Below are positions 1,412-2,403 of a DNA stretch of 3,454 bases, piece by piece. The notes below the pieces were generated by a model, which saw nothing but the letters and a program-made list of their open reading frames with translations, did not search any database and was not told the DNA's origin. Both the position numbers and the translations under genes were made by a program. This DNA comes from Escherichia coli (GTDB lineage Bacteria > Pseudomonadota > Gammaproteobacteria > Enterobacterales > Enterobacteriaceae). Within the stretch, counting starts at the first letter, position 1; each line of letters begins with the position of its first letter. The stretch lies in NCBI RefSeq assembly GCF_003334405.1, contig NZ_QOWM01000034.1, one strand, 5' to 3'.

Positions 1412-2059
1412 ATGATTATCGTAATCGGTGGTGATAAAGGCGGCACAGGTAAATCACATCTGGCAACCAACGTAACAGTTTGCCTCTCACAACAGGGAAA
1501 GAGAACGGGGCTTGTTGAAACAGACCTGAATGGCTCGACCAAAAAATGGAATAAACGCAGAGAACAGGCCGGATTACCGCCCGTCGCGTTAAATGAAGCC
1601 TATGGCGACATCAGTGCCAAAATAACAAAAATGGCGGATGTAGCCGAAATCCTCATTATAGATACTGCCGGATATGACAGCACGGAGTTCAGAACTGCAC
1701 TAAAAGTTGCAGACATTGTGATTGTCCCGATCGACCCGCTTGCCCAGGTGGAAGCAGACAGTCTTCAGACTGTGACAAAAATTGTCAGGGATGCGCAAAA
1801 AATAAATCCCAGGCTGGCTGCACATGTGCTCCTGTATAAATGCCAGCCAAATACGTTCAGTGAACAACAGGAATTAAGAGACTCTCTCAACAGCCATGAT
1901 TACTGGCTTAAACCAATGAAAAGCACGGTTTCTTTTCTCCGGGCCTTTGTAAGAGCAATGAATCAGGGAATGGGGGTTCACGAGTTAAAAAGTAATGTTA
2001 GCGGTGCCAGCCAGGCAAAAGCACAAATCGAACTTTTGCTGAAAGAACTGGAACTGTAA
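1412..2059 (+). CDS. parA: ParA/ParF-family partition ATPase (small type Ib Walker-type ATPase, 215 aa)
   Basis: ORF track. Deviant Walker A GGDKGGTGKS near the N-terminus, A' motif LVETD, Walker B-like ILIIDTAG, and a C-terminal region that aligns by eye with TP228 ParF as I recall it. The size and lack of an N-terminal helix-turn-helix extension are typical of type Ib ParA. The SD is weak (AAGGGG, 4 nt spacer). Confidence 0.88.
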   Translation: MIIVIGGDKGGTGKSHLATNVTVCLSQQGKRTGLVETDLNGSTKKWNKRREQAGLPPVALNEAYGDISAKITKMADVAEILIIDTAGYDSTEFRTALKVADIVIVPIDPLAQVEADSLQTVTKIVRDAQKINPRLAAHVLLYKCQPNTFSEQQELRDSLNSHDYWLKPMKSTVSFLRAFVRAMNQGMGVHELKSNVSGASQAKAQIELLLKELEL

Positions 2060-2133
2060 ATCACAGTGACATACACTAATGTACATCATTATGAAATACA
2101 TTAGTGTGAAACAATCAGATTAGAAGGTACATC
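2060..2133. repeat. Second iteron/palindrome block between parA and the downstream gene; candidate second partition site or operator
   Basis: TCACAGTGACATACA (2061-2075) matches the upstream TCACTGTGACATACA (1388-1402). GTACATCAT at 2081-2089 and again at 2128-2136, where it overlaps the ATG at 2134. Inverted repeat CACTAATGTA (2074-2083) / TACATTAGTG (2097-2106). Possible promoter GTGACA (2066-2071), 18 nt, TATGAA (2090-2095). Confidence 0.55.
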
Positions 2134-2403
2134 ATGGCAAAGCTGGAACTACCAGAACTAGAACAAAACCAGGAAGTGAACGCCACAAAATTTGTTCAGG
2201 ACGCAGGAAAACGCCCCACAGAGAACAAAACAAAACTGGCTTCATTCCGCATACCGAATGAATTGCTTGAATTCATTGATAACGAATCAAAAAGACTGCA
2301 TCGCCCCAAGACAAAGATAATCAAAGCAGCATTACTGGCTTATCAGGATCTGGACGAAAACGAACTCATTAATTTGTGGTTCAGAGCTGACAGAAATGAT
2401 TAA
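2134..2403 (+). CDS. Small partition partner, putative ribbon-helix-helix centromere-binding protein (ParG-like, 89 aa)
   Basis: ORF track. Position immediately after parA, and size. Polar, charged N-terminal tail of about 33 residues, then KLASFRIPNELLEFIDNESKRLHRPKTKIIKAALLAYQDL, consistent with a strand-helix-helix pattern. SD AGAAGG 6 nt upstream. The RHH assignment is inferred, not a recognised match. Confidence 0.6.
   Translation: MAKLELPELEQNQEVNATKFVQDAGKRPTENKTKLASFRIPNELLEFIDNESKRLHRPKTKIIKAALLAYQDLDENELINLWFRADRND

Follow-up and report, generated by a model that had tools for sequence, protein, structure and literature searches.

Two described type Ib partition systems, ParF-ParG-parH of TP228 and delta-omega-parS of pSM19035 (Firmicutes), offer a comparison for the locus analyzed here. 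The omega repeats of pSM19035 are contiguous 7-bp heptads, unlike the boxes of our locus, which are spaced by 12 to 13 bp, and pSM19035 further differs by a larger delta, by delta and omega genes that are not adjacent, and by its host range. With TP228, the present locus shares a small Walker ATPase devoid of a DNA-binding domain, which is a detectable homologue of ParF, a following gene for a small RHH dimer carrying a flexible N-terminal tail of ~30 residues (predicted in our case), and an array of short degenerate boxes upstream of the operon. In the TP228 system, residues 15 to 23 of ParG dock as a helix in the cleft of the ParF dimer, with R19 near the gamma-phosphate (PMC5393062).

IncX4 (mcr-1) and IncX3 (blaNDM-5, blaOXA-181) plasmids play a major part in carrying resistance to last-line antibiotics, and their stable inheritance is usually credited to "parA" or "parAB" from annotation alone. 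Papers on IncX plasmids use the names "parFG," "parA and parG," or "parAB," again by annotation only (PMC3402527, PMC4207749, PMC5955891), and in the literature that we searched, we found annotation-level statements and no experimental work on the partition of IncX3 or IncX4 plasmids.

We analyzed a stretch of 3,454 nucleotides of Escherichia coli DNA (the window), which corresponds to an IncX4 plasmid backbone like that of mcr-1 plasmids. It is 95 to 99% identical to conjugative plasmids of ~31 to 34 kb hosted by E. coli, Salmonella, and Klebsiella. We propose, with a probability of about 0.8, that positions 1258 to 2403 constitute, within this backbone, a cassette for type Ib plasmid partition (Table 1). 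Systems of this kind are well known, and the IncX4 cassette does not alter how type Ib partition is understood in general; the databases, however, leave its partner protein and its repeats unannotated.

Table 1. Positions in the window of the elements of the candidate partition cassette
Feature	Positions	Strand	Basis or remark
Upstream array, six consecutive 25-bp units; candidate centromere and operator	1258-1407	.	25-nt register
Weak sigma-70-like promoter match (TTGTAA, 17 nt, TATAGT) inside the upstream array	1306-1334	+	9 of 12
Small ParA/ParF-like partition ATPase	1412-2059	+	215-aa ORF, ATG, begins MIIVIGGDKGGTGKS
Deviant Walker A GGDKGGTGKS, residues 6-15, signature lysines K9 and K14	1427-1456	+	family alignment
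Second array, two 25-bp A-N4-B units, starting at the ATPase stop codon	2056-2105	.	25-nt register
Isolated A box (GTACATCA), overlapping the start codon of the 89-aa protein	2127-2134	+	box scan
89-aa RHH protein, candidate centromere-binding partner (ParB analogue, ParG-like architecture)	2134-2403	+	ORF, ATG, begins MAKLELPELEQNQEVNATKFVQDAGKRPTENKTK
N-terminal tail, residues 1-33	2134-2232	+	low model confidence, pLDDT 40-60
Most conserved tail motif, F20-P28 (FVQDAGKRP), containing K26 and R27	2191-2217	+	family consensus FIxxGDxRP
RHH core: strand 34-40, helix 42-55, helix 59-72	2233-2349	+	profile matches and models
Third helix, residues 75-88	2356-2397	+	models; absent from the preliminary description

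The ParF-like ATPase and its candidate partner gene

The preliminary description of this DNA, made from the letters alone, had reported two ORFs, which we recovered with the same coordinates and start sequences. Each is preceded by a Shine-Dalgarno-like sequence (AAGGGG at 1402 to 1407 and GAAGG at 2121 to 2125). We consider both ORFs to be real genes and not chance ORFs, given the spread of the 89-aa protein among plasmids and the match of the larger product to a ParA model (see below).

The larger product had been described as a small ParA-family ATPase lacking an N-terminal DNA-binding domain, and our analysis bears this out. Residues D8-K9-G10-G11-T12-G13-K14-S15 conform to the deviant Walker A pattern xKGGxxGK[ST]; K9, G10, G11, G13, and K14 are invariant across five ATPases of the family and ParF, and the aspartates of Walker A' and Walker B (D38 and D84) are shared without exception by ParF and four family members. 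The NCBIfam equivalog model ParA_partition (NF041546) matches residues 2 to 210 with an E value of 3.8e-32; since the score of 111.5 bits lies below the curated cutoff of 180 bits, the protein ranks as a diverged relative that falls outside the equivalog defined by this model. Pfam returned only generic P-loop families (CbiA, ParA, MipZ, AAA_31, and VirC1). The best relative of solved structure is ParF of TP228 (4dzz and 5u1g; E value of 2.5e-11, or ~3e-11), with residues 7 to 213 aligning to ParF residues 8 to 201, i.e., over the full length, and the ATPase is 28% identical to ParF of the IncX1 plasmid pOLA52 (E value of 1e-15). Its size and the lack of an N-terminal HTH domain fit the type Ib class of ~200 to 230 residues. 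The full-length similarity to ParF and the conserved Walker residues thus identify a diverged, small, ParF-like type Ib ParA.

We then looked into the distribution of the 89-aa protein. Its family is small, with 16 representative clusters at E values of ≤0.001 among 1.8 billion representatives, and is covered by no Pfam or NCBIfam model. A homologue was nevertheless present in at least 1826 plasmid records, IncX3 and IncX1 included (320 at ≥99% identity and about 1500 below 60%), and the diverged examples listed, from IncX3, IncX1, and other plasmids, showed about 29 to 39% identity. In every locus examined (three metagenome or genome contigs, the IncX3 plasmid pEC26-NDM-5, an IncX1 Salmonella plasmid, and an IncFII Citrobacter plasmid), the homologue lies directly downstream of a gene for a ParA-type protein of 213 to 220 aa, and the other neighbors differ. 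The upstream protein is an ATPase of 220 aa for the IncX3, IncX1, and IncFII homologues, and P0022, P0025, and P0028, which are 30 to 33% identical to the 89-aa protein in the family alignment, are each encoded directly 3' of a gene for a CbiA/ParA protein of 213 to 215 aa. This constant adjacency, together with the predicted RHH fold (see below), supports the earlier suggestion that the 89-aa protein is the partner of the ATPase.

The IncX3/IncX1 genes annotated "parAB" elsewhere (WP_000516402.1 and WP_001185481.1 in pEC26-NDM-5, where the labels are "MipZ" and "hypothetical protein") belong to the same homologous family as the present pair. Their ATPase is 36% identical to ours and their partner about 31 to 38%, and gene order, tail motifs, and the placement of repeats in two positions are shared. 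The IncX1 plasmid pOLA52, for its part, encodes a true ParF (206 aa) and ParG (76 aa) between a resolvase gene and ddp3-rep, a slot that is occupied by the present type of pair in other IncX1 and in IncX3 plasmids; in the IncX4 relative, the pair lies between dqlB and the rep gene. IncX plasmids have therefore swapped partition cassettes at one backbone position, in keeping with the variation of the partition cassette reported among IncX1 reference plasmids (PMC3097218). Beside parF and parG, pOLA52 has an extra gene for a 354-aa ParA-family protein, and the region that holds these genes is 37241 to 39631 (L011).

Predicted fold and N-terminal tail of the 89-aa protein

Profile searches, which the preliminary description had proposed for both proteins, placed the ATPase in the ParA/ParF group (see above) and gave a less firm result for the 89-aa protein. 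RHH_1 matched its residues 37 to 70 with an E value of 0.0037 and was found at E values of ≤0.1 in 9 of 17 family members, and a search of all PDB sequences with the family profile ranked CopG first, in the strand-helix-helix register (E value of 0.07). All RHH matches fell short of the usual thresholds (best E values of 0.0017 to 0.0037), so that the sequence evidence for this fold is weak but consistent. ParG (1p94) was among neither the phmmer matches of the 89-aa protein nor those of the family profile against PDB sequences, and the same searches revealed no similarity to any solved RHH partition protein; hhalign against ParG gave a probability of 0.8%, and BLASTP against ParG of pOLA52 gave an E value of 0.19 over 9 residues. 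With nothing significant from these four approaches, membership in the ParG family was rejected. The present partner thus differs from that of TP228 in having no detectable sequence similarity to ParG.

The predicted monomer structure (mean pLDDT of 74, and ~84 to 91 over residues 41 to 80) contains helices at residues 42 to 55, 59 to 72, and 75 to 88 and a short helix at residues 17 to 24, and its best Foldseek matches were mostly RHH proteins, namely, CopG (probability of 0.92), CdbA, TacA, Arc, AmrZ, and ParG. As the RHH strand forms only in the dimer, we modeled two copies as a head-to-tail fusion, using a doubled family alignment from which P0018 was left out as an apparent frameshift variant. 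The fused-dimer model (core pLDDT of ~72 and mean of 59, i.e., moderate confidence) has strands at residues 34 to 40 and 123 to 129, which, being the sole strands, must pair together. The strand-helix-helix pattern that had been read from the sequence after the tail is reproduced in the predicted dimer. Altogether, the 89-aa protein is predicted to be an RHH dimer with a flexible tail of 33 residues and an added C-terminal helix, for which ParG has no counterpart. D74, just before this third helix, and N76, within it, are conserved in the family. In P0020 (166 aa), also of this family, the RHH core and third helix occur twice in tandem within a single chain, a natural duplication of the module. 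The match of P0018 (85 aa) to the window protein is confined to the two ends, and the unmatched middle suggests a double frameshift or an assembly error.

The tail is indeed polar, as first described: K, E, Q, and N make up 16 of the first 34 residues, for a net charge of 0, and K26 and R27 are located as reported. It contains 4 of the ~12 best-conserved positions of the family, L4 and P7 in a motif that had gone unnoticed (KLxxP, residues 3 to 7) and F20 and P28 in the FIxxGDxRP motif. A basic residue occupies position 26 or 27 in all family members except P0032, in which the segment has diverged. Position 27 is R in most members and K in two, and the IncX3 homologue has R at position 26, not 27, so that no single arginine is strictly invariant. 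In both the monomer and the fused-dimer models, the short helix directly precedes K26-R27-P28. These motifs set the protein apart from ParG, whose tail carries FGENR, and the spacing of FIxxGDxRP is unlike that of F15-G16-x-x-R19. The preliminary description had suggested that the tail stimulates the ATPase, as in ParG-type proteins; this idea seems to point at the right segment, in which, by analogy, K26 or R27 may have a role.

Repeat arrays in front of both genes

The repeats are made of two 8-bp boxes, termed A (GTAMATCA) and B (GAMATACA), spaced by ~12.5 bp, with 13 boxes in positions 1258 to 1402 and five or six in positions 2056 to 2134. The 20-bp unit GTAMATCA-N4-GAMATACA, counted at ≤1 mismatch, has 7 copies in the window, against 0.01 expected from shuffled sequences. 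Five of these copies are upstream of the ATPase gene and two are between the genes, all in a strict 25-bp register, and every 25-bp unit of both arrays begins with GTA. The upstream array includes an inverted unit (1282 to 1301) and a hybrid unit (1333 to 1352) and extends as far as the Shine-Dalgarno sequence preceding the ATPase gene. Iterated repeats, as in a type Ib cassette, are thus present next to the operon as candidate binding sites. The ACAT/AAAT cores of the A and B boxes of one unit are 11 bp apart, approximately one helical turn, a spacing that would suit two RHH dimers binding side by side. The arrangement differs from that of TP228, where tetramer boxes are separated by AT-rich spacers, and also by the presence of a second array between the two genes.

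A weak sigma-70-like promoter match lies inside the upstream array, and we suggest only that this position might allow autorepression; in a consensus scan, promoter-like matches in this region were no commoner than in shuffled sequence. Matches to mir-3688 in Rfam, found on both strands at 1313 to 1396, were rejected (26 bits versus a gathering score of 84), as they stem from the partly palindromic character of the repeat array. A perfect 16-nt inverted repeat (1023 to 1038 and 1149 to 1164; TTTAGTTACAACATTC and GAATGTTGTAACTAAA), with 110 nt between its arms, lies a short way upstream of this array and encloses a GC-rich hairpin (1106 to 1128) that a scan called terminator-like on the minus strand.

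Relatives have the same layout of arrays in two places, with other repeat sequences: at 1980 to 2216 and 2909 to 2961 in the IncX3 locus (L008), at 3074 to 3264 and 3927 to 3977 in L002, and at 904 to 1028 and 1680 to 1858 in L005. The IncX3/IncX1 arrays consist of TAAAGA/TTTACA-type boxes in 36-bp units, and this different sequence predicts a separate centromere specificity. A conserved layout with diverged repeats is what would be expected of sites coevolving with the protein that binds them.

Proposed function, alternatives, and plasmid setting

We propose that the cassette operates as follows. Dimers of the 89-aa protein, most likely formed through its RHH fold, would occupy the 20-bp A-N4-B units two at a time. 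Coating of the six upstream and two intergenic units with dimers could then build a multiprotein partition complex, and binding to the same repeats probably represses transcription of both genes. From this complex, the projecting flexible tails would reach the ParF-like ATPase, present on the nucleoid as an ATP-bound dimer, and may stimulate its activity via the conserved FIxxGDxRP segment, which combines the short predicted helix at 17 to 24 with K26-R27 just after it. Drawn along by the receding ATPase gradient, the plasmid would thereby end up in both daughter cells.

The 89-aa protein might instead be only an RHH repressor of the operon, the true partner being encoded elsewhere or the ATPase positioning something other than the plasmid. 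Plain repressors are very common among RHH proteins, the repeats share sequence with the likely promoter regions and the two ribosome-binding sites, and a study of IncX6 could not locate ParB and its sites next to parA (PMC5868456). However, type Ib systems use one small protein as both repressor and centromere binder (PMC5393062); eight units exceed the usual need of an operator, a plain repressor has no need for conserved tail motifs, and the genes for the ATPase and the 89-aa-type protein stay adjacent in all loci examined, whatever their neighbors. We therefore regard a role restricted to repression as unlikely. The many RHH antitoxins among the structural neighbors and the weak matches to CopG_antitoxin (E value of 0.11) and BrnA (E value of 0.0018, 18 bits versus a cutoff of 60) could point to a type II toxin-antitoxin pair in which the 89-aa protein is an antitoxin of the CopG/BrnA type, but this appears extremely improbable: these matches span only the generic RHH core, and no toxin gene adjoins the gene in the window or in the relatives' loci examined, where the constant neighbor is the ParA ATPase. 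On account of this conserved pairing and of the missing toxin gene, the antitoxin assignment was rejected.

The other alternative concerns the ATPase, which most of the RefSeq records that we saw name MipZ, next to a "hypothetical protein" as the 89-aa partner. An mcr-1.4 plasmid typed as IncX4 is a case in point, as it encodes an identical 89-aa protein labeled "hypothetical protein" and an ATPase labeled "division plane positioning ATPase MipZ," the PGAP name. If this name were right, the protein would be a MipZ-like regulator of the division site and not a plasmid partition motor. Pfam MipZ does match residues 2 to 43 (E value of 6.5e-6) and 66 to 118, and MipZ structures match with E values of ~5e-7. 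Yet these matches are partial (residues 2 to 129 of 215, with the PDB MipZ alignments ending at 129), whereas those to ParF and ParA_partition cover the full length and score better, and the ATPase is plasmid-borne, has 215 aa, and comes together with an RHH gene and with arrays of repeats. We consider a MipZ-like function very unlikely and, from these sequence comparisons, the name MipZ a misnomer.

A broader proposal can be made tentatively, at somewhat less than even odds. The 89- to 94-aa proteins encoded by IncX4 and IncX3 plasmids and by many IncX1 plasmids would form a distinct, undescribed family of RHH centromere-binding proteins with ParA-activating tail motifs of their own, KLxxP and FIxxGDxRP, and with a third helix that may mediate dimer-dimer contacts. 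Their centromere would be split into arrays before the ATPase and partner genes, and differences in array sequence would decide which IncX subgroups are incompatible in partition. A named partner and probable centromere repeats offer targets for plasmid-curing or incompatibility experiments as well as an extra typing marker, and the pair adds one more diverged RHH/ParA case to those in which the activation of ParA ATPases by disordered tails can be compared.

The backbone genes of the closest record are arranged as topB, hha, hns, dqlB, the ATPase gene, the 89-aa gene, variable genes, a DUF2726 gene, and rep. On the 5' side of the cassette, the window contains a match to AgrB antisense RNA (294 to 381, minus strand; 62 bits versus an Rfam gathering score of 40) and an ORF for a hydrophobic protein of 31 aa (656 to 751, plus strand), which the annotation of relatives names DqlB, a DinQ-like toxin. 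We take these two elements to be a type I toxin-antitoxin locus. By way of a 33-nt direct repeat (350 to 382 and 548 to 580, 85% identical), the likely dqlB leader contains a copy of the AgrB region, so that the antisense RNA would be able to pair in trans. A recent study validated a locus of the same kind in IncX3 plasmids (PMC12317039). A small ORF (821 to 1000, plus strand) situated after dqlB and before the partition repeats encodes a hydrophobic protein of ~59 aa and matches a "hypothetical protein" CDS (WP_001694198.1) at the equivalent position in the closest relative.

The region 3' of the cassette (2404 to 3237) is variable among IncX4 plasmids, and most relatives cover only 68 to 76% of the window. 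Most of them carry a DUF2806 gene at this position, and mcr-1 plasmids have mcr-1 there. In the window, it holds an ORF for a hydrophobic protein of 71 aa (2428 to 2643) and one for a protein of 117 aa with a signal-peptide-like N terminus (2856 to 3209). The ORF that leaves the right end of the window (3238 to 3454, minus strand) is the equivalent of the 3' portion of a gene that, in relatives, encodes a DUF2726-domain protein.
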